Of a stretch of DNA of 64,000 nt, positions 11,962 to 27,596 are shown piece by piece. A program made the position numbers and the translations under genes. The notes beneath the pieces are model-generated. The model worked only from the letters and a program-made list of their open reading frames with translations. It ran no database searches and had not been told where the DNA came from. Origin of the DNA: an uncultured Gemmatimonadaceae bacterium (lineage in GTDB: Bacteria; Gemmatimonadota; Gemmatimonadetes; Gemmatimonadales; Gemmatimonadaceae); contig CAWAGQ010000008.1 of NCBI GenBank assembly GCA_963781585.1, forward strand, positions 96,001 to 160,000, written 5' to 3'. Positions within the stretch are counted from its first letter, which is position 1. Every line of letters begins with the position of its first letter.

Positions 11962-12019
11962 CTGCGCTCGTCAGGCAGGCGGATTCGCCGTCCGGCCACC
12001 CCACAGGGGGAGCGCGCGC

Positions 12020-14728
12020 CTACTCGGCGCGCAACGCCGCCGCCGGATCGACCCGCGCCGCGCGAGCGGCCGGGAGCCAGCAAGCGGCCACCCCCACCAC
12101 CGCGAGCATGAAAGCGACGCCGACCAGCGTGGTTGGATCGTGCGGCGTGACTCCGAACAGGAGGCCGCGCAACAGCCGGGCCGCGGCCAGCGCACCGGTC
12201 GCGCCGACCGCCAGCCCCGCCGCGAGCAGCACGCCTCCCTCGCCGAGTACCATGCGATGGACGCGTCCCGCGCCCGCCCCGAGACTCATCCGGATGCCGA
12301 TCTCCGCGGTGCGTGAGCTCACCGAGAACGCCAGCACGCCGGCGATGCCGACCATCGCAATTACGAACGCCAGCGTGCCGAACGACGTGATGAACAGCGC
12401 ATTCAGGCGGCGCGGCGCCACCGACTGGTCGCGAATCTGCTCGAGCGTCTCCACGTGCTCGATCAATTGCAGCGGATACATCTCGTGAATCGCTGCGACA
12501 ATCGCCGGACCGATCAGCGCCGGATCCGACGTCGTTCTCACAACCAGCGCGCCGTTGACAATCATCTCCTGCGCGAACGGCAGGTACACCGCGGGTGTCG
12601 GATCGCTGTCGAGGCCCGCGTCGCGGGTGTCACCCACGACGCCCACCACCGTGCGCCAGTCATCGGTGAACGGAGTGAACCTCAACACCGCGCCCGTCCA
12701 GGCGATGTGACGGCCGATCGGATCCTGGTCGCCGAAGAGTTGTCTGGCGAAGGACTGGCTCAGCACAGCGACCAGCTCCGTACCGCGCCGGTCGGTCGTC
12801 CCGAATCCATGGCCTTCGACCAGCGGAATGCCGGCCGCCGTGAAGTAGTCGGGATCGACCATCTTCATGTCGGCGTGGGGTGTCGGCCGGTTCGGGGGAA
12901 CGGTGCGGCCTTCGGCCTTTACGTCGAAGCCGACCATCGAATTGCGGAGCGGCACACCGGTCCCGATCGCCGCCAGACGGACACCGGGTAGTGCGGCCAC
13001 GCGGTCCCGGATGCGGTCGTACTTCGCGAGGTTCTCGGGTTGCTTCAATATTTCGCGGAGCAGATCTCCCTGGAGCGGGAGATCGAGCGTCAGCACATGA
13101 TTGACGCGCACGCCCGCGTCCACCGCCTGCAGCTTGTCCAGCGTGCGCATCAGGAGTCCTGCGCCGGTGAGCAGCACCATGCAGAGGGCGACTTGCGCGA
13201 CGACCAGCGACCGCTGAACGCGCTGTCGCCCGCGGCCCAGCGTCGTACGGCGGCCTCCGCCCGTGGGAGTCAGAGACGCGGCGACCACGCGCTCTCCGCC
13301 AATACGGGGAACGAACGACAGCGCGACCGCCACCACCACGCTCGTGGCCAGTCCGACCGCGAGCACGACGCCGTCGACCCGAATCTCGCTGGCGCGCGGC
13401 GAGAACTGCCCGGCGAACGCCACCAGCAGCTTGAGCCCGGCGAGCGCCACCAGCACTCCCAGCGCAGCACCGATCAATGCGAGCACGAGGTTCTCGACCA
13501 GCAACAGGCGCCGCAGCCGTCCCCTCCCCGCACCGAGGGCCGCGCGCAGGTGCATCTCGCGCTCGCGGCCCACGCCGCGCATCAGTGTGAGGTTGGAGAC
13601 GTTGGCGCATGCAATCAGGAGCACGAATGCCGCCGCGCCCATCAGCAGCCAGAAGGTGAGCGACGCGCGCTCGTTCTCCGCCTCCTTGAGCGGTGACAGG
13701 CTGATCTCGTAGTGCGCCGCCTTCTCGTACGCGTCCGGGTGATCGCGGAACACGTTCGACGCGAGGCGGCTGATCTCCTCACGCGCCTGCTCGACCGCCG
13801 TGTTCGGGGCGAGGCGCGCGAAGACCTCGGTCATGCGATGGCTGCGGTCGGTGACCATCGTCGCGCTGAGATGGTGCGGGCTCGTCACGGTGTTCACGAA
13901 CACGTCGGTGGCCTGCGGATACTGCGGCGCCGGCTGCATCACGCCGATGATCGTGGAGATCTGATCGTTCATGCGGACCGTGCTGCCGAGGATGCCGGAG
14001 TCTCCACCGAAGTGCTCCATCCAGTACTGAAATGACAGGACGGAAACGGACGCCGCGGCCGCGCCGTCGTCACGGGGAGTCGTGAGCCGGCCCAGCACCG
14101 GCTCGAGGCCCATCACGTCGAAGTAGTTGCCGCTCACGACCGCGGCCCGCACGCGCACCGGATACCCGTCGCTGCCCACGAGGGTGAACGGCATGACGTT
14201 GGAATACTCGGCGATGGCCGAAAGCGTCTTCGAGCCCGTTCGGTAGTCGGCGATCTCGGGAATGGAGAAGAGGACGTTGTGTTCCTTCGCCCCAGGCGCC
14301 GATTGTCGCAGGTACACGAGCCGCTGGCCATCGCGATTGGGCAACGGCCGCAGGAGCGTGCCACGCAGCAGCGTGAACATCGCCGTGTTCGCCCCGATTC
14401 CGAGCGCGAGCGTCAGGACGACCGTCGTCGTGAAGCCCTTTGCGCGCCGGAGACTGCGCAAGGCGAAGGCGATGTCGCGAGCCAGTTCCTCGAGCCACCG
14501 GGTGCCGCGGGTGTCGCGCACCCGCTCCTTCTGGAGCTCGAGTCCGCCCAGGGCGCGCATCGCGGCGTACCGTGCTGCTTCAGCCGGCATGCCGCGGGCG
14601 ATGTTCTCGGCGATCTGACGTTCCAGGTGGTACCGCAGCTCCTCGTCCAGCTCGCGCTCCACGGTGGCTCGCCGAAACAGCGAACGAAGACGGAGGGGCA
14701 CAACGCTCAGCAACCGGTCGAGGCTCAT
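12020..14728 (-). CDS. Duplicated MacB/FtsX-type ABC permease with N-terminal prefix domain
   Basis: ERELDEELRYHLE prefix, LTLALGIGANTAMF, LLIACANVSNL and EIGIRMSLGA; starts 1 nt after the PadR stop. Confidence 0.9.
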   Translation of the reverse strand: MSLDRLLSVVPLRLRSLFRRATVERELDEELRYHLERQIAENIARGMPAEAARYAAMRALGGLELQKERVRDTRGTRWLEELARDIAFALRSLRRAKGFTTTVVLTLALGIGANTAMFTLLRGTLLRPLPNRDGQRLVYLRQSAPGAKEHNVLFSIPEIADYRTGSKTLSAIAEYSNVMPFTLVGSDGYPVRVRAAVVSGNYFDVMGLEPVLGRLTTPRDDGAAAASVSVLSFQYWMEHFGGDSGILGSTVRMNDQISTIIGVMQPAPQYPQATDVFVNTVTSPHHLSATMVTDRSHRMTEVFARLAPNTAVEQAREEISRLASNVFRDHPDAYEKAAHYEISLSPLKEAENERASLTFWLLMGAAAFVLLIACANVSNLTLMRGVGREREMHLRAALGAGRGRLRRLLLVENLVLALIGAALGVLVALAGLKLLVAFAGQFSPRASEIRVDGVVLAVGLATSVVVAVALSFVPRIGGERVVAASLTPTGGGRRTTLGRGRQRVQRSLVVAQVALCMVLLTGAGLLMRTLDKLQAVDAGVRVNHVLTLDLPLQGDLLREILKQPENLAKYDRIRDRVAALPGVRLAAIGTGVPLRNSMVGFDVKAEGRTVPPNRPTPHADMKMVDPDYFTAAGIPLVEGHGFGTTDRRGTELVAVLSQSFARQLFGDQDPIGRHIAWTGAVLRFTPFTDDWRTVVGVVGDTRDAGLDSDPTPAVYLPFAQEMIVNGALVVRTTSDPALIGPAIVAAIHEMYPLQLIEHVETLEQIRDQSVAPRRLNALFITSFGTLAFVIAMVGIAGVLAFSVSSRTAEIGIRMSLGAGAGRVHRMVLGEGGVLLAAGLAVGATGALAAARLLRGLLFGVTPHDPTTLVGVAFMLAVVGVAACWLPAARAARVDPAAALRAE

Positions 14729-14729
14729 C

Positions 14730-15065
14730 TCAGACCTCCTGGAGACGCAGCAGCGCGGTGATGGCGCCGGCGAGCCGGTCCCAGTTGCCCGATTCGACCT
14801 GCAGCTGCCTTCGTCCGGCACGCGTGAGGGAGTAGAACTTGGCGCGCCGGTTGTTCTCGCTTTGCCGCCACTCCGAGGTGATCCATCCTTCCTGCTCCAG
14901 CTTGTGGAGCGCCGGATAGAGCGATCCGTCGCTGACCTGCAGCACGTCCGAGGACAACCGCGTCAGCCGTTGCCCGATCGCCCATCCGTTCATCGGCTTG
15001 AGCGCCAGCATCTTGAGAACGAGCAGATCCAGCGTGCCCTGCACCAGGTCTGTCGGCTTGCTCAT
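14730..15065 (-). CDS. PadR family transcriptional regulator
   Basis: LVQGTLDLLVLKML, GSLYPALHKLEQEGWI and NNRRAKFYSLT. Confidence 0.92.
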   Translation of the reverse strand: MSKPTDLVQGTLDLLVLKMLALKPMNGWAIGQRLTRLSSDVLQVSDGSLYPALHKLEQEGWITSEWRQSENNRRAKFYSLTRAGRRQLQVESGNWDRLAGAITALLRLQEV

Positions 15066-15174: not shown

Positions 15175-15660
15175 TCAGAGGTTCGGGAGCACGTCGAGTG
15201 CGAGCGCCTTCTCCATGTCCATTTGACTGGCCTGACCCCGGACGCCATAGAGGCGAACGACGAAGGCGACGCTCCCCTTCTTCACGGACAGGGTCGTCAG
15301 GCTGCCGACCGTGGCGTAGACCGCGTCTTCCCCGATACCGCTGGCGGCCGTCTTCGTGACTCCAGGGAGTGGAGTCTGGAAATCCGTAAACGCCTGCGCG
15401 TCCCAGAGCTGGAGCGTGACCCTCGGGACCGTAGTGTTCGGCTTGGGTGCCGCAGCCCACTGGCACCCCGACGTGCCAATTGGCTCTCCTGCCCCGACGG
15501 TCATCCCGACTATGCCGCTGATCTGGGCCTGCGTGAGCATCGCACAGGGATCGGTGGCGGCCCGGGCGAACGCGGTGCGAGCGCTGGCCGCGTCGAGCAC
15601 GAAGACGATACCGGTGCAGACGGTGGCGACAATCAGGATCCTGCAGTGTTTCGACCTCAT
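15175..15660 (-). CDS. Secreted hypothetical protein (DUF3558-like)
   Basis: Signal peptide; DPCAMLTQAQI...GCQW...SGIGEDA pattern. Confidence 0.6.
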   Translation of the reverse strand: MRSKHCRILIVATVCTGIVFVLDAASARTAFARAATDPCAMLTQAQISGIVGMTVGAGEPIGTSGCQWAAAPKPNTTVPRVTLQLWDAQAFTDFQTPLPGVTKTAASGIGEDAVYATVGSLTTLSVKKGSVAFVVRLYGVRGQASQMDMEKALALDVLPNL

Positions 15661-15905
15661 CGGTCAGCCTCCTTCCATCAGCGGACGCATCCCCTACCGC
15701 GCTCCAACACCTCTGCCCGTCGCGAGGCCGGCTGCCTGTTCGCGGTGCTCAAACATGGCCCCTCACTGAACGGACGCAAGCGAGCGCAGGGCGCGGCATG
15801 AGAAGGTCCGGCCGCCGTCCGCCACTCCGGATCCTGGTCAGCAGGTTTGTCCCCGGCCGGCGGAGCGAATCTCTTCCGCGTTTGACAGCGTCATCCACAT
15901 GCCGC

Positions 15906-18881
15906 ATGATCCCCGTCAACGTGCTGCGCCTGTTGACCTTCGGAGGGCTCGCCCTCGACCGACCCGGGGGGCCGCTGCCGCCGCGGCTGCGCCCGCAGCG
16001 GCTGGCGATTCTCGCTGTGCTCGCTTCCGCCGCTGACCGTGGCATGTCGCGCGAGCGCATGGCCGGCCTCTTCTGGCCGGAAGCAGAGGAGGAGCGGGCC
16101 CGTCACTCGCTTCGCCAGGCGCTGTATGCGCTGCGTCAGGAGCTGGGCGCCGACGTGATCCGGTCCGGCGCGCTCCTGTCGCTCGACGGTTCGGCACTGA
16201 GCTCCGACGTCGGTGACTTCCGGGCGGCTCTGGCCGCGGGGGACCGCGCGCGTGCCGCGGCACTCGCGACCGGACCGTTCCTCCTGGGATTCTACCTCGC
16301 GGACAGCCCCGAATTCGAGCGCTGGGTGGAGGAAGAGCGGGCCGCCCTCGCCGTCGACGCCACCCGCGTCGTCCTCGCGCTCACGAAGGAGGCCGAGGCC
16401 GGCGGCGACCAGGACGCCGCCGCCGAGTGGTGGCGCCGGCTCACCATGCTCGACCCGCTGAGCGGCCGCTTCGCGTTAGGCTATCTGAAGGCACTGGCTG
16501 GTCGCGGCGACCGGGCCGGTGCGCTGGCCTTCGCCAGGGCGCACGAGAGCATCGTGCGCCGCGAGCTGGAGGCCGACTCCGATCCGGAGATCCGTCGACT
16601 TGAGGCGGAGTTGCGCGCCATCCCGTCGCCCGCCGTGGTCCGCGTCGCCCCGCCACGCGCGCCCGACGCCGGCGTCGCGGTCGATGGGGCGCCCGCCGCC
16701 ACACCTGACGAGGCAGGGCTCGACGCGAAGCCATCCAGCGTACCGATGCCAGCCCACGGCCCGAATGCCCCACGTGACACCGGTGCGGATGCAACGCCAT
16801 CGCGCGCCGACGCCATCCCGCCGGCGCGCTCACGGAAGCGACCCTGGCTCATCCCGAGCGTGGCAACCGCGGGCGTGTTGGTCGTCGTGTCCATCCTGAC
16901 CGCCGACCGGTGGGGCCCGCCGCTGGGCCTCGGCGTTCATCGTAGTTCACCGACGTTTGCGGTCGGGATGATCCGCGAGGAAGGCGTCCCCGACAGCCTG
17001 CGCATCGGCGGTGTGCTCACCGACATGCTCGCGACCAATCTGGCGCGCGTGGGCGGGCTCTCGGTGCTCTCCAACGCGCGGCTCTTCGAGTTGATGCTCC
17101 CTGGTCAGGATACGCTCGCCACCGGATACCTCGAGGCGGCACGGCGGGCCGGCGCCACCGAGATCTTTCAGGGGCGTTTGCTCTCCGGCCCGCAGTGGAG
17201 CCTGGCAATGGAGATCCAGCGCGTGGATCTCGCGACCGGCCTTGTTCGGAGCGGTTATCGCGTCGCCGCCAGCGACCGCTATGCGCTGATCGACAGCATG
17301 ACGGCGGCGATCGCACGCGACTTGCACGTCGGACTACCCAGCAGCTCGGTAGCCGACGCGACGACCGATTCGCCAATGGCATATCGCCTCTACGAGGAGG
17401 GACTCCGCGCCTACTATCAGTACGACGATCCTGCCGCTCGGCGCCTGATGCAGGCGGCGCTCCAGGAAGACTCGAGCTTCGCCATGGCGGCCTACTACGA
17501 CGCACTGCTCGCTCCGGGTGGAGGCGCTGAGGAGGTCGACACCCGCCGACGGGCGTTGCGGCTCGCCGCCCGCGCGCCCGAACGCGAACGCCTGACGATC
17601 ACGGCCGATTTGCTCACACTGAACATGGAACCGGCGGCGCTCGCCGTCGCCGACTCCTTGACCACCAGATATCCCACCAACCCGCGCGCGTTCGCGGTGG
17701 ATGCAACAGCCCTGTACATTGCCGGCGAATGGCGCGACGCCGTGACGGCGATCGAGCGTGCGATCGCGCTGGACTCGGCGTCGGAGCCCGTAGAGCGACG
17801 CAATTGCAGGCTCTGCTCGGACCTCGGGCAGCTTGCCGAGGTCTACTTCTGGTGGGATTCGCTGCCCGCGGCGGAGCGCACCGCGCAGCGCTTCCTCCGG
17901 CTTCGGCCGGGCTCGCACTATCCGTGGCATCTCCTGGTCCGTTCGGCGGCCGCGCGCGGGGACCTGAGCGCCTTCCGCGAGTACCTGCGACGCTTCGACG
18001 AGGCGAATCCGTCGATCACGTCGGCGAACTACCTGCTCCACTTCGTGACGCTCGCCGAGGATTACGACGAGGTCGAACGGAGCGTGCAGAAGGCCCTGGA
18101 CTCTCCGAGAGCGGACGACGCCGGCGAGGCCCGGTGGTTTCGCTCCATTTCGCTCCGGAACGAGGGACGACTGGAGGAAGCTCTCAGGCTGGCGCGCGTG
18201 CGTCCGAACCCTAACGACCTGGCCGAAGGATTGATCGCGCTCGAACGTGGGGATCCCCGTACCGCCGTCTCGATCTTTCGTGCGCGGGCTCGCGTGAGTC
18301 AGTCCATGTGGCCATCCGGGATCCGAGCACGGCATGAGGCCTGGGACAGGACGCTCCTGGGCATGGCACTGGCCTCCGCGGGGGACACGATTGCCCTCCG
18401 CGCTCTCGCCGATACCGTGGAGAACCTGGGACGCCGGAGCATCTACGGACGCGACCGGCGCGCGCATCACTACTTGCGTGGGATGCTGCTGGTGGCCGAG
18501 CACCGGGACCCGGAAGCGGTTGAGGAGCTGCGCCAGGCGATTCACTCATCGACCAACGGCTTCACGCGGGTCAACTACGAGCTGGGGAAGACGCTCATGC
18601 GGCTGGGTCGCCCTGCCGAGGCCGCACCGATCGTGCGGTCCGCCCTGCACGGCGACATCGATGGATCGAATCTGTATGTCACACGAACCGACCTCCACGA
18701 GCTCCTCGCACAGGTATTCGATCGACTGGGGAGTCGCGACAGCGCAGCCGTGCACTACCGGGCAGTAGTCAAGGCCTGGGAGCACGCCGACCCGCTCTAC
18801 CAGGCGCGGCGCGAGGCGGCACGCGCGTGGCTCGCTCGGCATCCAGAGCCGCAGACCACCGGTACAGCCAAGGACCGTTAG
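15906..18881 (+). CDS. Membrane-anchored SARP-type regulator: wHTH + BTAD, TM helix, TolB-N-like domain and TPRs
   Basis: LRLLTFGGL, SRERMAGLFWPE...ARHSLRQALYALR and GPFLLGFYL..SPEFERWVEEER; Pro/Ala linker; TM helix near 16845-16900; TPR C-terminus. Confidence 0.85.
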   Translation: MIPVNVLRLLTFGGLALDRPGGPLPPRLRPQRLAILAVLASAADRGMSRERMAGLFWPEAEEERARHSLRQALYALRQELGADVIRSGALLSLDGSALSSDVGDFRAALAAGDRARAAALATGPFLLGFYLADSPEFERWVEEERAALAVDATRVVLALTKEAEAGGDQDAAAEWWRRLTMLDPLSGRFALGYLKALAGRGDRAGALAFARAHESIVRRELEADSDPEIRRLEAELRAIPSPAVVRVAPPRAPDAGVAVDGAPAATPDEAGLDAKPSSVPMPAHGPNAPRDTGADATPSRADAIPPARSRKRPWLIPSVATAGVLVVVSILTADRWGPPLGLGVHRSSPTFAVGMIREEGVPDSLRIGGVLTDMLATNLARVGGLSVLSNARLFELMLPGQDTLATGYLEAARRAGATEIFQGRLLSGPQWSLAMEIQRVDLATGLVRSGYRVAASDRYALIDSMTAAIARDLHVGLPSSSVADATTDSPMAYRLYEEGLRAYYQYDDPAARRLMQAALQEDSSFAMAAYYDALLAPGGGAEEVDTRRRALRLAARAPERERLTITADLLTLNMEPAALAVADSLTTRYPTNPRAFAVDATALYIAGEWRDAVTAIERAIALDSASEPVERRNCRLCSDLGQLAEVYFWWDSLPAAERTAQRFLRLRPGSHYPWHLLVRSAAARGDLSAFREYLRRFDEANPSITSANYLLHFVTLAEDYDEVERSVQKALDSPRADDAGEARWFRSISLRNEGRLEEALRLARVRPNPNDLAEGLIALERGDPRTAVSIFRARARVSQSMWPSGIRARHEAWDRTLLGMALASAGDTIALRALADTVENLGRRSIYGRDRRAHHYLRGMLLVAEHRDPEAVEELRQAIHSSTNGFTRVNYELGKTLMRLGRPAEAAPIVRSALHGDIDGSNLYVTRTDLHELLAQVFDRLGSRDSAAVHYRAVVKAWEHADPLYQARREAARAWLARHPEPQTTGTAKDR

Positions 18882-18950
18882 GCTGTTGCCGCGCAGGGCG
18901 TGTTCCTCGAGGGGGCGGCCCGCCCTGGGAGCCCGGGAACACCGCACGCC

Positions 18951-19628
18951 CTATTGGCTCGATTCGCTCGTCTCGATCCACCGCTCCAGCAGGGCGAGAT
19001 GCCGCGTCATGACGGCCTCGGCATCGAGGACGCCCTGGTCCGATGGATCACGCGGTCCCGTTCGCTGCATCGCGAGGTCCGCATCCATGAAGAACGCCGC
19101 ACCGTCCGCCCTGCCCTCGGTGTCCACGCCTGGCATGTCATCGACGCCGCCCGGAGCGCGTTCGTCGAGAAGCCTGCGATACATCGCGTAGTACCGGTCA
19201 GCGGCAGCGATGTACGGCTCCACCGCCTGTGACTCGAGGTAGTCGCCCACGGTCCCGTCCGCGCCGTACACTCCTTCTGTCTCGGGGTGCGGTTCGTTCT
19301 CGACGAACGATTCGCTTCCATCGGCCTGCACGATCCGGCCGAGGGGGTAGAGGCGGCAGACGAGCGGACGGTCGGCGTGGACGCTGCAGCCATGCGGTCC
19401 GAGAAAGACGCACGCACTGTCCGGACGCGAGGCCAGTGCGACGCCGCCGTCCACGGTGAAATGTGCGATTACCTCCGTGGTCGTTGTGCCGAGATACCGC
19501 GCCAGTCGTGCGAGCTCGTATGGATTGACCTGGATGCGCTTGCCGTAGCAGCACCGGCTGCACGCGCGGCACCGATACGCGAACGCCGATGATCGCGCGT
19601 GCAGCACGGGCAGGGGCGCTGCCGCCAC
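18951..19628 (-). CDS. YkgJ family cysteine-cluster (CxxCxxCC, putative Fe-S/Zn) protein
   Basis: CRACSRCC, CVFL...GCSVHADRPLVCRLYPLGR; GTG directly after the upstream TGA. Confidence 0.85.
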   Translation of the reverse strand: MAAAPLPVLHARSSAFAYRCRACSRCCYGKRIQVNPYELARLARYLGTTTTEVIAHFTVDGGVALASRPDSACVFLGPHGCSVHADRPLVCRLYPLGRIVQADGSESFVENEPHPETEGVYGADGTVGDYLESQAVEPYIAAADRYYAMYRRLLDERAPGGVDDMPGVDTEGRADGAAFFMDADLAMQRTGPRDPSDQGVLDAEAVMTRHLALLERWIETSESSQ

Positions 19629-19991
19629 TCAGTCTCCCGGCGCTGACATCACGGCGCGCACCTTGTCCTGGATCATCGACGGAATGCCCATCGTGCCCAG
19701 CTCACGCGACAGCGAGTCGTACCACTTGACCTGCGTGCGGGCTCCGGCGGGTGATCCCACAAACATGCTGACCGCGTCCGTGAGGTCGAAGCCGCCCACG
19801 AGGGCACCGCCATCCCCCGGTGCCTTGTAGAACTTGATCTGCAGTCGCACGGCGCTGGGCGCCGCGGCCAGGAGTTCCGCCGGCACGCCCAGGCCCGCTC
19901 CCAGTGCCAGGGCCGCGGCCAGCCGGACGCTGTCACGTCGGGAGACGGCAGGAGCGTCGTCGCGCTTTGGTCCGATCTTCTCGTCAGGCAT
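19629..19991 (-). CDS. Small (120 aa) protein with twin-arginine signal
   Basis: GGAGG RBS; VSRRDSVRLAAALALGAGLG Tat-like leader; two Q[IV]K[FW]Y motifs. Confidence 0.7.
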   Translation of the reverse strand: MPDEKIGPKRDDAPAVSRRDSVRLAAALALGAGLGVPAELLAAAPSAVRLQIKFYKAPGDGGALVGGFDLTDAVSMFVGSPAGARTQVKWYDSLSRELGTMGIPSMIQDKVRAVMSAPGD

Positions 19992-20129
19992 GACCGCCTC
20001 CATGTGCGGGTTGCTGTGAAACGCCGTCGTGCGTCCCGGCCAGACGTCCAGGTCGTGCTCGCACCGCATCGTGACGCCCGCACCTGGGGGGCTGTGGAGC
20101 CCGCAATGAACGACTTCCCGTCCGTGGCG

Positions 20130-20969
20130 TCATGGCTTCTTCGCGCTGTCGGGGTCGGGAGGGCGGCGGGTGCGGTAGCCGTCGGCCGCCTTCGTCAGGA
20201 AGTAGTTCACCGCATCGTAGCCGGCAGTCGACTGGAACTCGGATGCGGCGTCACCCATCACCATGACCATCTGCTGGACGCTGGCCCGCTCATACTCTTC
20301 GAGCTTGGGAACGACGTTCGTCCTGAGGTATTCTCCGTAGGCGCTCAGCCAGGTCTGGAGCCTGCCCTCCGGACCCAGATATCCCATGCAGGCCTTGTCG
20401 TACTCCGTCTTCAGCTGCGCCAGCAGCGTGTCGTACTTCTTCTGATCGGCCGCATCCGGAAAATAGAACTCGGCTTCGGCGGGCTTCGACCTGGTATCGA
20501 TGAGCTGTTTTATCGCCTGCTGGACCGGTACCTGCGCCTTCTTGGTCGCCGCGCCGAACTCCTCCAGCAGTCCCTTGAATTCCTCATCCTTGTACACATC
20601 CTTCCCGCCAAAGAGTGATGTGATGTCCGCCGACGCGGTTTTCGCGGCCTGCATGGCCTTCATGGCCTCCTGCGGGTTCTTCATCATGTACGCTTGCATG
20701 TTCTGCGCCTTGGTGGCGCCATCTATTGAACCGAACCGCTCTCTGACGTCGCCGTTGATTTTCTCCTGCTTCGCTTCGTCCGCCTTGTTGGCCTCGATGG
20801 CCTTGTCCAACCGGTCGGCGATGTCGTTGGCCGGATCGCACGTCTTCGGAAGGTCCGGGACGACCCGCCACGGATCAGCCTTCGTCCCGGACTGCGCGCC
20901 GAGCGTGCCGTGCAGCAACGGCAGGGCGGCGAGCACACAGGTGGCGATGCGAGACGCGAGTCTTGTCAT
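20130..20969 (-). CDS. Secreted helical hypothetical protein
   Basis: GGAG RBS, signal peptide ending LGAQ, codon usage typical of the window. Confidence 0.75.
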   Translation of the reverse strand: MTRLASRIATCVLAALPLLHGTLGAQSGTKADPWRVVPDLPKTCDPANDIADRLDKAIEANKADEAKQEKINGDVRERFGSIDGATKAQNMQAYMMKNPQEAMKAMQAAKTASADITSLFGGKDVYKDEEFKGLLEEFGAATKKAQVPVQQAIKQLIDTRSKPAEAEFYFPDAADQKKYDTLLAQLKTEYDKACMGYLGPEGRLQTWLSAYGEYLRTNVVPKLEEYERASVQQMVMVMGDAASEFQSTAGYDAVNYFLTKAADGYRTRRPPDPDSAKKP

Positions 20970-21051
20970 GGTGATCCGCTCCGGGGTTGCCGCGCCAGCG
21001 GCGTCGGTGGATTGTTTCGATACTGCGCTCATTCGCTGCGGGGACTCCGGG

Positions 21052-22236
21052 TCACGACCCTGAATACCGCGCCCACGGAGCGGGCCAGAGGCGGCCATCG
21101 AGCCCGACCCCGACCACCTGGTATTCGTAGATCAGGCCGGGGGTTGGAATGGCGTCGACGAAGCCGGGGGTGGGTATCGGCCGCGGCGTGAGCTGCGTCA
21201 GATCAGCGGTCGTTCCGTCTGTTCGCACCGTTCGGCGCCACACGACGTAGCCGGCTACCGCCCAGGCGGCGCACCACGTGACGCCCACCTTGCCGCCGGC
21301 GCCGGCCGCGAGGACATTCCCGGGCGTCGTGTAGGCCGGGGTGAAATACGGGACGTTAGGCGACTTGACAGTCGACATGTCCGGCATCACTGCGGTGACC
21401 GTGTACCCGTACGGTGTCCCTGGCGCGGGGAGCGCGTCGGTGAACGTCAGCGCCGCGAGCGTCCCCTGCGTGAGCATCACTGCGGGGCCCAGTCTGCCCA
21501 TGGCATCGATTGGCGCCCGGGACAGTGAGTAGCCGACCGCGCCGGCGGTGGCCGTCCAGCTGAGCGTTGCCTTGTCGCCCGCGCCGACGACCGTCACCAC
21601 CGGCGGGGTCGCCGCTGCCGGAGCGGAGTAGCGCACCCAAGTCGACGGGTACGTCGCACCGGAGGGATCGGCGGAGACTACCTGATACTCGTAGGTCGTG
21701 CCCAGCGCCGGGAGTGCGTCGGCAAAACTGGTTGCCGCGATCGGCGCCGGCGTGCGTTGACTGAGATCGGCCACGCTGCCGTCGGTCTTCACGGTGCGCC
21801 GCCAGACGTTGTAGCCGGTCACGCTCATCGCCGCGGCCCACGAAACGGTCGCCTGGCTGCTGGCGCCGCTGACCGCGACGTTCGTGGCGGTCGTGAACGC
21901 CGGAGTCGCATACCGAACCGGCGCACTCGACACCGTCCCCGTCCGTGCTGTCGCGTCGATGCGGTATTCATAGAGTGCGGACGGCTTCGGCAGCACATCG
22001 GAGTACGTTCCAATGGTGAGCGTGGCGACCGACGCCCAGTCGGTCAGGCTCCGCACCATCCCTCTCGGATCGACGCTGATTTCGTGCCGCATCACTGCAT
22101 ACCGCGTCGGACCCGCGAGCTGACTCCAGCTGAGGGTGGCCTGGTTCGCGGTGCCGTTGACCGTGACGCTGATCGTGGGGGTCTGCGCCGCGAGGGGAGC
22201 GGCAAGGAAGGCCGCCAGCAGTACAGCGTGCGTCAT
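21052..22236 (-). CDS. Secreted protein with four tandem fibronectin type III-like repeats
   Basis: Four ~95-aa units with W...Y.V.R...F.D.LP.....YEY.V pattern; ATGA overlap with the OmpA-family gene. Confidence 0.75.
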   Translation of the reverse strand: MTHAVLLAAFLAAPLAAQTPTISVTVNGTANQATLSWSQLAGPTRYAVMRHEISVDPRGMVRSLTDWASVATLTIGTYSDVLPKPSALYEYRIDATARTGTVSSAPVRYATPAFTTATNVAVSGASSQATVSWAAAMSVTGYNVWRRTVKTDGSVADLSQRTPAPIAATSFADALPALGTTYEYQVVSADPSGATYPSTWVRYSAPAAATPPVVTVVGAGDKATLSWTATAGAVGYSLSRAPIDAMGRLGPAVMLTQGTLAALTFTDALPAPGTPYGYTVTAVMPDMSTVKSPNVPYFTPAYTTPGNVLAAGAGGKVGVTWCAAWAVAGYVVWRRTVRTDGTTADLTQLTPRPIPTPGFVDAIPTPGLIYEYQVVGVGLDGRLWPAPWARYSGS

Positions 22237-23513
22237 TGCTTCACCACCTCCACCCGGCGATTCTGCGCCCGCCCCGCCGCCGTGGCATTCGGAACGGCCG
22301 GCTTGGTGTCGCCGAATCCCTTCGTCGTGATGCGGTCCGCGTCGGCGCCGAAGTCGGACACCAACGCCGTCTTCACCGCCGCGGCACGCGCGTCACTCAG
22401 TGTGAGATTGTTCGCCGCCGAGCCCACGTTGTCGGTATGCCCTTCGATCAGGATCTTCAGGTCCGCATGCTGCTTCATGGTCGCGGCGATCTCCTTCAGC
22501 ACCGGCCGCGATTCGGGCTCGAGGTCCGCCTTTCCGGTGGCGAACAGAATTCCCTGCGTCACCCACCGGCCCTTGGCCGTGAGCGCGTCGTACAGCACGT
22601 CGGTCTCGCTCTCGGCCACCCGGATGCTGGTGATGAACAGCGCCTGATCCTTCTCCTCGCTCCCGCCCAGCAGCACGCGGATGACGGTGTCGCGCTTGAA
22701 CTGGAGCTCGGGATTGTTGTAGAGGCGCTTTTCGTTCGTGTACATCTTGAAGTACGCGCTGTCCATCAGGATCCGGAGGTGGGCTACCTTGCCGTAGTAC
22801 TGCTCGGCCACTTCGGCCGGGGGATGCAGCTGGCTGGTGCTCATGTTCTGCCCGCCCCCGATGATGAACGCATTATGCGTATGCCAGTTGATTTCGGCCG
22901 AGTTCGGGCTCCGGTCCATCGCCACGCCGCCCTCCACGCTCACCAGCGGCGAGGTGCTCGGATAGACCGACGGGATGAGGACGTCGATCTCCAGGGTGAA
23001 CCGCTGGGGGAGTGTCCGCCCGAGCGGGATCAGGAGTGTCGAGGCTCCGATCGCCCGGAGCATCTTCACGTCATCGCGCTCCACCACGTCCATGGGGCCG
23101 CCCACGTACTTCAACCCGCGGGCGAAGTTCCCGACCTTGTCCTCGGAGAAGTCGGTGTAGAAGAGCACCTTGTTCCCGGGGACGAAGTCGTAGTTCTCCC
23201 AGATCTTCGGATCGGCCTTCGCCGCGGGTTGCGACCCGCCGGGGGTTGCCGCGGTGGGGGCCTGCCCGGACGGCGGCGCCTGTCCGGATGCCGGCGCCGC
23301 TCCTCCCGCCGCGGTAGGCTTCGCGGAATCGGCGGCGGCTTTCGCCTTGGCACTGTCGTCCGCGGACTTCTTGGCCGCGTCGTCGATCTTCTTCTTCGCG
23401 GCTTCGGCCTTCTTCTTCAGCGAACCGAGTCCCTGCGCGGAACCGGCGCCGGGAGATGCGACGGCGAACGCAATCGCCGCCAGACCGATTGCAGACCACC
23501 TCATGACGTGCAT
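22233..23513 (-). CDS. OmpA/MotB C-terminal domain protein (peptidoglycan-binding)
   Basis: ILFATGKADL, IEGHTDNVG, LSDARAAAV and GRAQNRRVE; N-terminal YDFVPGNKVLFYTDFS domain; signal peptide. Confidence 0.9.
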   Translation of the reverse strand: MHVMRWSAIGLAAIAFAVASPGAGSAQGLGSLKKKAEAAKKKIDDAAKKSADDSAKAKAAADSAKPTAAGGAAPASGQAPPSGQAPTAATPGGSQPAAKADPKIWENYDFVPGNKVLFYTDFSEDKVGNFARGLKYVGGPMDVVERDDVKMLRAIGASTLLIPLGRTLPQRFTLEIDVLIPSVYPSTSPLVSVEGGVAMDRSPNSAEINWHTHNAFIIGGGQNMSTSQLHPPAEVAEQYYGKVAHLRILMDSAYFKMYTNEKRLYNNPELQFKRDTVIRVLLGGSEEKDQALFITSIRVAESETDVLYDALTAKGRWVTQGILFATGKADLEPESRPVLKEIAATMKQHADLKILIEGHTDNVGSAANNLTLSDARAAAVKTALVSDFGADADRITTKGFGDTKPAVPNATAAGRAQNRRVEVVKQ

Positions 23514-23577
23514 CGCTTCCTCCTTGCACCAGTCCCGTCGGGTTGGAGCGATCCTGACCTGCGATTCTGAGCCGCGC

Positions 23578-24609
23578 TCACGGCCGTGCCCCCTCTCCCC
23601 TCAACCGCACCACCTGATTCCGCTTGAACTCCGCACCGCTTACCACCTTCGCCGTGGAGTACCGGGCCTCGACACTCTCGATCACCACCTCGCCCACCAG
23701 CTTGTCCGGTGAACCCAGGTTCCGGCCGGTCTCCGGATCGAGCAGCTCCGGCTGCGGATCGAAGATCTCGAGCGCCATGCCCGGCTGCATCCCGTAGCCC
23801 GCGCCGGCGTTCACGTACACCACGCCGTCACGGAAATCGATCACCCGGGCGCTCCACTTCATCTTCGGGACGCTGGCGATGATCCCGGCGACCGACTTCT
23901 GGATCGCCTCGCGCGAAGCCCTGCCTAACGGCGTGGACAGCGCCACCGAGCCGTCGTAGTGCTTCTCGTCCCTGGTGAGGTCGGCGGTCACGCCCTGCTG
24001 CGCTGCGCTGCCGTCCCCCTTGATCGACGCGATCACCTCGCCCGTCACCGCGTCGATCAGTCGCAGATCGATGCTCACCGACGCCGCAACGCGCTCAATG
24101 CCGGCGTCAAGTCCCTTGATCACGTTGGTGAGCTTCCCGCCGACCGCCGAGCGGTTGAAGGCGAAGCTCGTGATGTCACCGGAGATCAGCACCTGCGCGC
24201 CCATCAGCTTTCCCACTTCGGCCGCCGTCTCCTTGTTCACACGCCCCGAAGCGCCAAGGTCCTGCTCCTGCTGCACCTGCGACAGCGCCTGCCGCTCCAG
24301 CACGATGAAGCGGGAGGTCGCGACCAGCGACGTGGTGAGCGCCTCGGTCAGCGAGCGCGCGAATTCCGCTGGCGCCGGAATCGCGATCGTGGTCTGAGTG
24401 GTCTGCTGGTATCCGCCGCCCGGCGCCATCCCCGGTTGCCCCATCTGCGTCATCTGTATCCGCAGGGCGGTCCCCGACAGGTCCATGACCGCGACCCGCA
24501 GCCGCGGCGTGACCATCGGCGCCGTCGGCGTCGCTGGCACTTGCGCGTTGCCGCTAGCGGGTGGCGCCAGCATCGTCACCAGGGCGAGACCGCGCAGGAC
24601 ATGCCTCAC
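23578..24609 (-). CDS. CsgG/HfaB family protein with FlgT-C-like C-terminal domain
   Basis: RFIVLERQALSQVQQEQDLGASG...GKLMGAQVLISGDITSF and IDLRLIDAVTGEVI; GTGA overlap with the upstream gene. Confidence 0.85.
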   Translation of the reverse strand: MRHVLRGLALVTMLAPPASGNAQVPATPTAPMVTPRLRVAVMDLSGTALRIQMTQMGQPGMAPGGGYQQTTQTTIAIPAPAEFARSLTEALTTSLVATSRFIVLERQALSQVQQEQDLGASGRVNKETAAEVGKLMGAQVLISGDITSFAFNRSAVGGKLTNVIKGLDAGIERVAASVSIDLRLIDAVTGEVIASIKGDGSAAQQGVTADLTRDEKHYDGSVALSTPLGRASREAIQKSVAGIIASVPKMKWSARVIDFRDGVVYVNAGAGYGMQPGMALEIFDPQPELLDPETGRNLGSPDKLVGEVVIESVEARYSTAKVVSGAEFKRNQVVRLRGEGARP

Positions 24610-25070
24610 GGAATCGTCCTCTCCGCATAGTTGTTTCCCGGTACCGGGTCCGGCGTGCTGCTGTACGTGAACACGCCGAAGCGCTTGCGCAGGCCATCGG
24701 CCGGGAGCGTGGTAGAGACGGCGACCTCGCGGAATCCGCCATTGGGAATGGCACCGAGGTCGCACAGTACCGTGGCGCGTAACGCGGGGACCATGGACGG
24801 ACCGGCCGAGGCCGCGCACCCGGGTCCGAGGCGCTCGATGTCGACGCCCACCGGGAGCAGAAACAGGAGACGCGCATCGCGGGCGTCGTCCTTGTTCTCC
24901 GTATAGATGATCACGCGCGCGCTCATGTTCGTGCGCGTCCGTGTCACCTCGAGTGTGCGGATCTGGATGTCGGCCTGCCACAACTGCGACTGCGGCATGC
25001 CCGACGGCAGGCCGGCACCGAGGGCGACCAGCAGGAGCCCCAGGGCAGTGAAGGTGCGTGCGACTCTCAT
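24606..25070 (-). CDS. Secreted DUF11-like Ig-fold protein
   Basis: Signal peptide; ADIQI, CDLGAIPNG and STPDPVPGNNYA resemble DUF11 repeats. Confidence 0.6.
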   Translation of the reverse strand: MRVARTFTALGLLLVALGAGLPSGMPQSQLWQADIQIRTLEVTRTRTNMSARVIIYTENKDDARDARLLFLLPVGVDIERLGPGCAASAGPSMVPALRATVLCDLGAIPNGGFREVAVSTTLPADGLRKRFGVFTYSSTPDPVPGNNYAERTIP

Positions 25071-25078
25071 GGCGGGCG

Positions 25079-25131
25079 ATCTTAGCCTGCGCCTGTCAGC
25101 CGCGCGTCCGGCCTGCGTCAGTGCGGCGTCA
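25079..25131 (-). promoter_or_regulatory. Activator-dependent promoter: four 11-bp-phased direct repeats plus -10 TAAGAT, probably leaderless
   Basis: Minus strand TGACG-N6-TGACG-N6-GGACG-N6-TGACA-N9-TAAGAT-N8-ATG (start codon at 25070). Confidence 0.65.
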
Positions 25132-25222
25132 ACCCCCTCGTGCTAATCGAGTTGGATAGTCGAGACCCCGCGGCGACCACTCCAGTGTCTTCGTCGATCT
25201 GATGGCGCCTGGCCTCGCCGCG

Positions 25223-26392
25223 TCAGTCGCAGTCGAGCGACGGATCGATCTCGCACGCGAGCGGCGACGCATCCCCGGTTGCTGCCCGACGAGGCTCGGT
25301 CGTCACATGAAGCGTCTCGTCCGCCGAGAGCAGATAGTGGCGGTAGTGCGCCATCGCCGTGATCTCGAATCGGCCAGGCGAGAGGAGCGTGTAGCTCATC
25401 GCGGTGGGAAGCGACCATGGCTGCGGGGCGCCGGCCGGCTCCTTGAGATTCACCTCCAACAGACTCCCGCCGTCTTCTGCCGGAGTGCCAGACACGCGAA
25501 TCCGCAGGTCCGGACATGACCGGCGCACTTCGCTTCGCTGAGGCAGGTAGCGCCAGCCCACGTCGACCTCCTGGAGGGACGCCCCCGCCGCGAGGAGACA
25601 GGCGCGCATCCGCTTCATCGCGGGAATCGGGGTTCGGGCAACGCGTGACGGCGCCGAAGCTGAATCCCGGATGCGAAGCAGGTCCCGGCTGTCCAGTTCG
25701 AGGATCGGGCCCGCGCGATTCAGCAGCGGTTCGGGGCGCAACGTGATCAGAAACCCCGGGCCGCCCCAGCGCGACGGGACGTTCGCCGCCGACAGAGTCC
25801 ATCGCCATCCCTTGTCGGCCTCGCGGTGAAAGCGCAGCGGCCACTTTGCGTCGATGTCGCGCGCGTCCCGTCTGAAGCCGCGACAGACATCCGGCTCCGT
25901 CAACTCCATCGCGCCGGGAACGCGACTGCCCGATCCTTCTGCCAACTGCGGTCCGACGCACGTCTCCTCGAACTGCTGCGCTCGAAAGATCGCGGTCTCG
26001 ATGCTGAGCGGTTCATCGCGCCAGGCCGCGAGCCAGGCGCGCTCTTCCTGCGCGTGGCGGCGCGCCATGCGGAGCGGCGCGGTGACCCGCAGAAGGTAGA
26101 ACTGCAACGGCTCCCACCACACCCTGGTGAAGACCCCGCGCTCCGGAAACGTCGCAAGCATCATGACACCGAAGAAGCCGATACTCACCGCGCGTGTGCG
26201 CGGAAGGAGGAGCATCACCGCCGCGACTGCCAACGTGGTCACCACGAAGCCACGCGCCGGCGGTGGGTTGGGCGGCATTCCGGGCATCAGCAGGAGCGTC
26301 AGGCCGAAGCAGGTGACCGCGCCGAGCACGAGGCCAAACGGCCTGGCGAGCAGGAACGTCCACGCCGCGCGGACGACACCTGCGAGACTCAT
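25223..26392 (-). CDS. Hypothetical membrane protein, tandem paralog B (389 aa)
   Basis: Three N-terminal TM helices; shares GWRWTLSA.N.PSRWGGPGFLI..RPEPLL.RAGPILELD and LACEIDP with its neighbour. Confidence 0.7.
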   Translation of the reverse strand: MSLAGVVRAAWTFLLARPFGLVLGAVTCFGLTLLLMPGMPPNPPPARGFVVTTLAVAAVMLLLPRTRAVSIGFFGVMMLATFPERGVFTRVWWEPLQFYLLRVTAPLRMARRHAQEERAWLAAWRDEPLSIETAIFRAQQFEETCVGPQLAEGSGSRVPGAMELTEPDVCRGFRRDARDIDAKWPLRFHREADKGWRWTLSAANVPSRWGGPGFLITLRPEPLLNRAGPILELDSRDLLRIRDSASAPSRVARTPIPAMKRMRACLLAAGASLQEVDVGWRYLPQRSEVRRSCPDLRIRVSGTPAEDGGSLLEVNLKEPAGAPQPWSLPTAMSYTLLSPGRFEITAMAHYRHYLLSADETLHVTTEPRRAATGDASPLACEIDPSLDCD

Positions 26393-26426
26393 GTCGATAC
26401 GGGAGCAATCCCCCGATGCGGGTTCA

Positions 26427-27596
26427 TCACTCGCAGTTGATCTTCGGATCGATCTCGCACGCGAGCGGCGGTGTATCCGTCGTCCGTGCCGGACGATCTT
26501 CGGTGGTGACGTGCAGGGTGCTGTCCGCCGCCAACAGATATCGCCGAAAGTGCTCGGCGCCGTGCAACTCGAAGAGTCCTGGGCCGAGGACGGTGCAGCC
26601 CATCGAAATGGGCCGGGACCAGACCTGCGCCGATCCATCCGGCTCCTTGAAGCTCACCTGGAGTTCCTGGGTGCCCTCGCGCTCCACGGTGCCTGATACG
26701 GTGATGCTCACATCACGGCACGCACGACGTGTTTCGGTGGCGTTCGGCAGGTTCGTCCAGCGTTGCAGATCGTCCGGAATCATCGCTCCGGCCGCAAGCA
26801 GGCATTCGCGCACTCGCTGCATGGCGGGAATCGGCGTGCGTGCGATGCGCCACGGCGCGGAAGACGAATCGCTGATGCGGAGCAGGTCCTGTCCGTCGAG
26901 TTCGAGGATCGGACCGGCCCGGCCGAGGAGCGGCTCGGGCCGGAAGGAGATCAGGAAACCCGGGCCGCCCCAGCGCGACGGCGTGTTCGAGGCAGACAGC
27001 GTCCAGCGCCACCCCTGGTCGCCCCGCTCGCTGAATCGATGCGGCCAGACCATGGGGATGTCGAGCGCATCGTTCCGGAAGCCGCGGTAGTCGTCGGGCT
27101 CGGTGAGCTCCATCGCCGAAGGCACGCCGGGCTGGGTCCGCTGCGCGAGTACCTTGCGTACCACGTCGGATTGCAGCTGGCGCGCCCGGAAGATCCCGGC
27201 GTCGATCGGGAGCGGGGTGTCGCGCCAGCGGGCAAGCCACGCGCGCTGTTCGCGCGAACGCCGCATGGACATCCGGATGGGGGCGGTTGCCACGCCAACG
27301 TAGTGTGCAACCGGCTCTACCCAGATGCGGGTATAGAAGCCGCGTTGGGGAATGGTGGCGATGACCAACGCCCCCAGAAAGCCGAGCGCGAACGCGCGCA
27401 CGAACGGCACGACCAGCAGCGCCGCGACCACGAGCAGCATCGTGAAGATGACGCTGCGTTTGACCCCGTTGCCACCGCTGTCGAACACGTACAGCAGTGG
27501 CGTGAGCACGGCGAACACGAGACCGCCGGCCACGAGGACCGGGCTCCAGTGAAAGAGCCATACCAACGCCAGCTCGAAGACGGACTTGGGCCGCAT
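26427..27596 (-). CDS. Hypothetical membrane protein, tandem paralog A (389 aa)
   Basis: Same architecture and conserved blocks as 25223-26392. Confidence 0.7.
   Translation of the reverse strand: MRPKSVFELALVWLFHWSPVLVAGGLVFAVLTPLLYVFDSGGNGVKRSVIFTMLLVVAALLVVPFVRAFALGFLGALVIATIPQRGFYTRIWVEPVAHYVGVATAPIRMSMRRSREQRAWLARWRDTPLPIDAGIFRARQLQSDVVRKVLAQRTQPGVPSAMELTEPDDYRGFRNDALDIPMVWPHRFSERGDQGWRWTLSASNTPSRWGGPGFLISFRPEPLLGRAGPILELDGQDLLRISDSSSAPWRIARTPIPAMQRVRECLLAAGAMIPDDLQRWTNLPNATETRRACRDVSITVSGTVEREGTQELQVSFKEPDGSAQVWSRPISMGCTVLGPGLFELHGAEHFRRYLLAADSTLHVTTEDRPARTTDTPPLACEIDPKINCE

Follow-up and report, generated by a model that had tools for sequence, protein, structure and literature searches.

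Introduction

Activators of the SARP family are best known as cytoplasmic proteins that switch on actinobacterial biosynthetic clusters, such as the antibiotic genes of Streptomyces. Here we analyse a regulator of this family that is predicted to cross the membrane. It is encoded in a 64,000-nucleotide stretch of an uncultured Gemmatimonadaceae bacterium (GenBank assembly GCA_963781585.1, contig CAWAGQ010000008.1, positions 96,001 to 160,000; the whole stretch is called the window below), where it converges on seven genes for mostly exported proteins. We consider it probable that the locus is an inducible, mix-and-match envelope regulon, in which a SARP with the topology of ToxR acts through a TGAC repeat box. 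From sequence comparison, the fixed part of the system appears to be the regulator with its operator and not a CsgG export machine.

The regulator shares its winged helix-turn-helix (wHTH) and BTAD domains with the SARPs AfsR (PDB 8HVR, 8K60, 8JKE) and EmbR (2FEZ), and has a C-terminal TPR array as in AfsR. Also shared with SARPs are direct repeats at 11 or 22 bp that end 8 bp before the -10 element, and a poor -35 element. The regulator differs from AfsR and EmbR in that a membrane helix and a predicted periplasmic sensor replace the NOD or FHA domain. It differs from known SARPs in its Gram-negative Gemmatimonadaceae host, in the TGAC core of the repeats, and in its predicted targets, which are exported envelope proteins instead of biosynthetic clusters. 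The word "membrane" does not occur in the accessible text of a SARP review (PMC10972967).

The second point of comparison is the ToxR and CadC group, with the VtrA/VtrC pair as described in the available part of 10.1101/2022.04.08.487670. Shared features are a cytoplasmic wHTH, one transmembrane (TM) helix, a predicted periplasmic sensor, and a small secreted protein encoded nearby. The regulator has a BTAD and a 650-residue, TPR-rich, predicted periplasmic part that ToxR and CadC lack. The small protein encoded close by resembles DUF11 and not the lipocalin-like VtrC of that account, and most receptor-bearing genomes lack it.

One of the seven cluster proteins recalls two further systems. With CsgG, the curli channel of type VIII secretion (4UV3, 6L7A), it shares the PF03783 domain, two predicted amphipathic hairpins, and a fold match (E~1e-9). 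Unlike curli CsgG it has no lipobox or cysteine and carries an extra FlgT_C-like domain, and identity is about 18%. Vibrio FlgT (3W1E, 8Z5N) is its best whole-chain Foldseek match (E=4e-13), ahead of CsgG, with the same order of middle and C-terminal domains. The protein differs from FlgT in lacking the FlgT N-terminal domain and in its predicted CsgG-type hairpins. Literature searches on non-curli CsgG-like or FlgT proteins, CsgG or HfaB in these phyla, BTAD-TM-TPR proteins of Gemmatimonadota, and transmembrane SARPs found no description, most subscription journals and supplements lying outside their scope.

Results

A SARP with a predicted transmembrane topology

The regulator and the promoter that it is predicted to control lie at opposite ends of the locus:

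15906..18881, plus strand: putative transmembrane SARP receptor, with wHTH and BTAD at about residues 1-240, a TM segment at 315-333, and a TPR array; the start may be the GTG at 15921
25079..25132, minus strand: predicted SARP-dependent promoter, with four TGAC-type direct repeats of 11-bp period and the -10 hexamer TAAGAT

Pfam places BTAD (E=6e-7) and TPR_2 (4e-7) above cut-off in the regulator and Trans_reg_C (3e-4) below it. A profile of 18 N-terminal domains matched AfsR (8HVR, E=3e-10) and EmbR (2FEZ, 2e-8) over the full length of wHTH and BTAD. The profile was required, as the same domain used as a single-sequence query against the PDB matched only TPR designs. Hydropathy gives one hydrophobic segment, at residues 315-333. 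Since this single segment follows an RSRKR stretch and has a counterpart in the matching position of each of the 12 other orthologue entries listed, the C-terminal part is predicted to be periplasmic (N-in/C-out). That part is TPR-rich and carries a CxxC motif that is invariant in 11 of 11 sequences. The initial annotation had described a wHTH-BTAD-TM-TPR regulator convergent with the gene cluster, and these results bear it out.

SARP domains are encoded by 6 of the 4806 genes called in the source genome, and 2.3% of its genes lie within 10 kb of one. The periplasmic domain occurs only in the window regulator and in its twin on a second contig, C5. The regulator thus classes as a SARP by domain and promoter geometry, and as ToxR/CadC-like by predicted topology.

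A repeat box with SARP geometry

On the minus strand, (T/C)TGAC(G/A)-type repeats occupy 25132-27, 25121-16, 25110-05 (degenerate), and 25099-94, with an 11-bp period. The last heptamer lies 8 bp from the -10 hexamer TAAGAT (25084-79), the -35 element is poor, and an ATG follows 8 nt beyond the hexamer; the transcript that opens with the DUF11-like gene is likely leaderless. In the available text of the sources, the SARP rule asks for repeats spaced by 11 or 22 bp and for 8 bp between the 3' repeat and the -10 element (PMC10936776), and the 11-bp unit is a heptamer plus 4 (PMC5930380, PMC10972967). The geometry at 25079-25132 equals the rule as given there. A consensus sigma-70 scan missed the operon promoter; it gave a single site, at the SARP start, which is no more than shuffled sequences yield.

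The same repeats recur upstream of the first operon gene elsewhere. Across 37 such upstream regions we found (T/C)TGAC(G/A) repeats of 11-bp period ending before a TAnnnT hexamer. A matrix was built from 20 sites at other loci, 17 of the 37 having been excluded (two from the source genome, 15 with a low seed score). Across 5.7 Mb the window site ranked first (46.8 bits), the site on the sister contig second (42.2), and a site on contig C10 third, whereas ten column-permuted matrices peaked at 11.7-26.0. With a flexible model, a site scoring at least 20 lay within 250 bp of a gene start in 12 of 18 held-out SARP loci, most of whose upstream regions had been looked at before scoring; the genome-wide frequency was 0.087 per 20 kb. 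The gene downstream of the box differs between these loci. Among 22 CsgG loci with no receptor in view, such a site occurs only in two close-clade loci, both of them training sources. Of the 30 genomes chosen for their best receptor matches, 7 contain a strict pattern, at 13 sites in all. Among 50 genomes outside the list of matches 1 contains it, and its reversed form was found in 1 of 80. Each of the eight strict-pattern sites outside the training set precedes a gene for a secreted protein or lipoprotein. The proposal that a ToxR/CadC-like transmembrane SARP controls the cluster thus gains specific support from a repeat box of SARP geometry that follows the regulator across genomes.

Several points weigh against this regulon reading. 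Six of the 18 held-out SARP loci have no site of at least 20, three of them forming a subclade with diverged repeats. The strict pattern is missing from 23 of the 30 SARP-positive genomes, and 5 of its 13 sites are training sites. In G078, a genome with no SARP match at 1e-40, a site also precedes a secreted gene; a more distant BTAD protein is present there. The genomes are relatives, so the box counts are not independent and kinship inflates all of them. Finally, the first periplasmic domain resembles the helix-strand motif of CsgG/TolB_N only weakly (hhalign E=0.16) and has no Pfam match.

Binding to 11-bp repeats is also a property of OmpR-type proteins, and the Pho-box core read on the opposite strand gives TGACAG. 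A different wHTH regulator, such as a PhoB/OmpR-type response regulator, might then read the repeats, with the SARP a mere neighbour, and three small wHTH-bearing proteins were picked up in the source genome. We regard this as very improbable. The TGAC box is oriented opposite to the Pho box, there are only about three strong sites per genome, the strict pattern occurs in just 1 of 50 genomes without the SARP match, and the box stays with the SARP gene through rearrangements.

Within the window the box is unique. The third-ranked site of the source genome (G000:C10:227072-227697; L123:5073-5698; G, C, and L numbers are our identifiers for genomes, contigs, and loci) has five TGAC-type repeats before a 170-aa gene with a signal for twin-arginine translocation (Tat), beside a polysaccharide gene cluster. 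Among the fetched loci, homologues of this gene occur only in the CsgG clusters L022 (55%, with its own box) and L087 (43%), and it is likely an unlinked regulon member. At L126 (G094:C5) a box and a secreted gene adjoin an internally deleted SARP remnant; an intact SARP lies elsewhere in G094.

The receptor lies beside a variable cassette

Open reading frame (ORF) calling and translation of the window confirmed the seven co-oriented minus-strand genes, with the regulator convergent. The features of the cluster and its flank are:

24606..25070, minus strand: secreted single-domain DUF11-like protein, 154 aa, two invariant cysteines
23578..24609, minus strand: CsgG/FlgT-like protein, 343 aa, with a signal peptide, no cysteine or lipobox, a CsgG-family domain, and a C-terminal FlgT_C-like domain
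22233..23513, minus strand: secreted OmpA-C (peptidoglycan-binding family) protein, 426 aa, by Pfam OmpA
21052..22236, minus strand: secreted four-repeat Fn3-like protein, 394 aa, by a custom hidden Markov model (HMM)
20130..20969, minus strand: secreted protein of no known family, likely helical, 279 aa from the MTRL start
19629..19991, minus strand: Tat-signal protein, 120 aa from the MPDE start, with two QxK(F/W)Y motifs
18951..19628, minus strand: CxxCxxCC (YkgJ-type) cysteine-cluster protein without a signal peptide, by Pfam PF03692
15175..15660, minus strand: secreted DUF3558-like gene, divergent from the SARP gene

The three coupled junctions read exactly as first described (GTGA at 24606-9, ATGA at 22233-6, TGA-GTG at 19626-31). 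The remaining three gaps are about 65, 83, and 140 bp. A window scan found no terminator-like site within the cluster, and no internal box lies in its gaps or before the 15175-15660 gene. Pfam matches above cut-off are CsgG PF03783 (E=6e-32), OmpA PF00691 (7e-25), and CxxCxxCC PF03692 (1e-11). The initial annotation had drawn the module from 15175 to 25140. Its seven genes and regulator stand, but it overlooked the operator at 25079-25132, and the 15175-15660 gene is probably not a member because it has no box upstream and is absent from the sister contig and from all compared loci.

Profile searches of 400 other genomes of the family, each at least 70% complete, showed how unevenly these genes are distributed. 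The SARP receptor family (periplasmic-part profile, E<=1e-40) occurs in 123, the CsgG subfamily (E<=1e-25) in 16, the DUF11-like gene in 16, and the Tat protein in 3. Half of the DUF11-like genomes (8/16) also hold the CsgG subfamily. We fetched 20 further regions around DUF11-like or receptor matches. Apart from a few without an operon, they hold receptor-adjacent operons for secreted proteins, none with an intact csgG, and share a pool of OmpA, helical, phosphodiester glycosidase, and Fn3-like proteins and Ig lipoproteins. Together with the DUF11-like, CsgG/FlgT-like, and Tat proteins, these make up a mix-and-match pool. As receptor-adjacent operons draw on this one pool, what stays constant is the receptor, next to a changing set of genes for exported proteins. 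Cluster genes do co-occur in other Gemmatimonadaceae, as the initial annotation had expected. Its fixed CsgG-OmpA-Fn3-Tat/YkgJ module is not supported as first drawn: half of the DUF11-like genomes and most SARP-adjacent operons are without this CsgG, and two loci (L001, L103) keep no more than a remnant of csgG.

One of these two loci comes from the source assembly. Contig C5 (G000:C5:68000-145000, L001) repeats the whole window in synteny at 85-96% identity; contigs C2 and C6 also look paired. C5 retains intact copies of the regulator gene and of the DUF11-like, ompA, helical, Tat, and YkgJ-type genes, at 74-89% identity. The csgG gene is a doubly deleted remnant of 74 residues, the Fn3 gene is cleanly gone, exactly from the ompA stop codon, and the 15175-15660 gene is missing. 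The ompA gene is kept between the lost csgG and Fn3 genes, which were lost separately. Because of the synteny over the whole window and a bin contamination of 7.2%, the C5 copy is probably a sister species in a mixed bin. A true gene duplication fits these two facts less well and was set aside. In the second remnant locus (L103:9101-9313; L134:1281-1415) a short ORF fuses the csgG start to the end of the YkgJ-type gene. In G220 one deletion removed the cassette and left the DUF11-like gene, SARP, and boxes; since it removed both genes at once, it is not an independent co-loss.

The DUF11-like gene could instead act upstream. In this rival explanation, the CsgG/FlgT-like and DUF11-like proteins would be co-sensors in the spirit of ToxS or VtrC, and the box would serve positive feedback. 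A receptor lies within about 10.5 kb of the DUF11-like gene on the same contig in 13 of the 16 genomes (G008 included), and the other three genes lie at most 1.3 kb from a contig end; the gene thus accompanies the SARP more often than it does the CsgG subfamily. The DUF11-like gene is intact in both loci where csgG decayed. More distant CsgG homologues, of 44-50% identity, are also encoded divergently from other receptors of the TM-TPR kind, whose outputs are a CadC-type wHTH or a kinase plus extracytoplasmic function (ECF) sigma factor. Kinase adjacency is weak evidence, however, because 16% of the genome's genes have a kinase or wHTH receptor of some sort within 10 kb. The comparison with an obligate co-component such as VtrC also fails on frequency: the receptor family is present in 123 of 400 genomes against 16 for the DUF11-like gene, so the receptor can do without this gene. 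We judge the co-sensor explanation quite unlikely and keep the DUF11-like protein as a candidate periplasmic partner.

The distant CsgG homologues are of interest by themselves. At L036, L038-L044, L047, L062, and L064 they adjoin CadC-type wHTH-TM-TPR regulators or kinase-TPR and ECF-sigma genes. These loci have other secreted proteins downstream and no TGAC box.

The CsgG/FlgT-like protein and its possible cargo

The CsgG/FlgT-like protein has a signal peptide and no cysteine and is non-lipidated; lipobox-like strings occur in 2 of 120 homologues. All 110 aligned homologues carry the PF03783 domain, and the C-terminal domain gives weak FlgT_C matches in relatives. The monomer model is middling (predicted local distance difference test, pLDDT, 67.6; predicted template-modelling score, pTM, 0.51), and the second hairpin's return strand falls below pLDDT 50. 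The alternating hydrophobic face of both hairpins is kept across the 110 homologues, as a CsgG-type barrel would need (V156/G158/L160 with L167/A169/I171; V207/A209/L211 with Y218/G220/V222/L224), and the first hairpin aligns with CsgG. The protein likely forms an outer-membrane ring, which may or may not be an open channel. The initial annotation had set a secretion pore against a FlgT-type domain without pore hairpins. That question is answered by halves, because the protein has FlgT architecture but also predicted CsgG-type hairpins.

Two familiar assignments were rejected. The annotation had seen no curlin gene in the window, and none was found even in the whole genome (93.5% complete); CsgF and FlgH were not found there either, and CsgE was not searched for. 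A curli operon is discarded on the missing curlin, CsgF, and lipobox, and a flagellar T-ring on the missing FlgH and on the presence of only the middle and C-terminal FlgT domains.

A dedicated non-curli export system was the reading first proposed. The SARP would induce a CsgG-like pore, with Fn3 and Ig proteins as cargo; OmpA would anchor the system to the wall, and the DUF11-like protein would serve as an adaptor like CsgE or CsgF. It is compatible with the regulon model and differs from it by an obligate link between pore and cargo. Besides the conserved hairpins, gene content speaks for it. All 13 long loci whose CsgG is intact and of the receptor/DUF11 type encode Fn3-like repeats, often directly after csgG, against 5 of 19 receptor loci without CsgG, a tally from which short metagenome contigs and one duplicate were excluded, in which some of the 19 are short, and for which the HMM was iterated on the same loci. 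Export of Fn3-like proteins is possible because their genes track csgG in this way. C5 lost both genes with ompA kept between them, and the DUF11-like and csgG genes share a GTGA overlap here and are immediate neighbours in most close loci.

Other observations count against the obligate link. Half of the DUF11-like genomes are without the CsgG subfamily. In two genomes, G120 (94% complete) and G255 (99%), SARP operons include Fn3-like genes while the genome has no PF03783 match anywhere, and PF03783 is absent from 4 of the 5 tested genomes that have Fn3-like genes but no CsgG at the SARP locus. The best fold match is FlgT, not CsgG; a lipobox, CsgF, and curlin are lacking; and OmpA was detected in only 2 of the first 6 loci. 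We therefore hold the dedicated export system to be doubtful. It is similarly tentative that the CsgG/FlgT-like ring, as an optional member of the regulon, exports or displays Fn3-like proteins.

Other cassette proteins and neighbouring genes

The initial label of the DUF11-like protein holds only through its relatives: the window protein has no DUF11 match, while 11 of 25 orthologues do (best 6e-6). The Fn3 label has a similar standing. Four repeats are detected by the custom HMM in the 21052..22236 protein, but Pfam fn3 gives no match, and the fold name is one we presume from the W..Y..Y pattern. The OmpA protein has an N-terminal helix of the QGLGSLKKK type and a middle domain without family assignment. 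A Q(G)(L/I/F)G(G/S)(L/I)(K/I)KK helix opens the mature chain of several unrelated co-regulated secreted proteins (window 23430-23330; L011, L022, L027, L087, L091, L106, L109-L113). Homologues of the helical secreted protein occur in other SARP operons (L104, L106). In the ESM Atlas, leads for the Tat and helical proteins were all below 0.9.

The Tat and YkgJ-type genes form a rare sub-cassette. All 47 aligned homologues of the Tat protein have the twin arginine, and the YkgJ-type gene directly follows the Tat gene in all six loci that hold the latter. A guess is that the YkgJ-type protein, acting in the cytoplasm, modifies or loads a Tat protein that is exported folded. One idea is FliB-like lysine methylation on the QxK motifs; we presume the link to the FliB-like family, and NCBIfam gave no match. 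The Tat protein is one member of a broader, unnamed family (P0183-P0216), made up of small twin-arginine proteins in which QLK(F/W)Y motifs recur. The family has 38 representatives at E<=0.001, two of which are unrelated repeat proteins.

Upstream of the operon, at 25223-27596, lie two tandem paralogous genes for 389-aa membrane-anchored proteins (68% DNA identity), which are absent from the sister contig. On the regulator's other side, 9526-15065 holds what we take to be two ABC-permease genes and a PadR-like gene.

Discussion

In the regulon that we favour, a periplasmic cue would be sensed by the TolB_N-like/TPR part of the membrane-tethered SARP. The SARP would then bind the TGAC repeat box (25094-25132) and recruit RNA polymerase as AfsR does, by sigma adaptation. 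This would induce a single transcript that codes mostly for exported envelope proteins, and also a few unlinked sites. The cassette products may remodel or reinforce the cell surface, and the CsgG/FlgT-like outer-membrane ring, an optional member, may help display Fn3-like proteins. DNA binding, AfsR-like activation, the single operon, and the nature of the signal are all parts that we infer.

A bolder reading is a trans-envelope sense-and-export system, in which a non-lipidated CsgG/FlgT-type outer-membrane pore secretes Fn3-repeat surface proteins in place of amyloid and is wired to inner-membrane TPR receptors with interchangeable outputs, a SARP in Gemmatimonadaceae and a CadC-type wHTH or kinase/ECF in more distant lineages. 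We think this unlikely. If true, it would describe a type VIII-like pathway with globular beta-sandwich cargo and the first membrane-tethered SARP with a mapped operator.

For the favoured regulon, the predictable operator makes the regulon directly testable and unlinked targets findable. The cluster also offers a defined context for asking what non-curli CsgG/FlgT-like proteins do. The host phylum is abundant in soil and barely studied, and a membrane-tethered SARP in about 30% of the sampled Gemmatimonadaceae genomes would extend SARP-type activation to envelope sensing.

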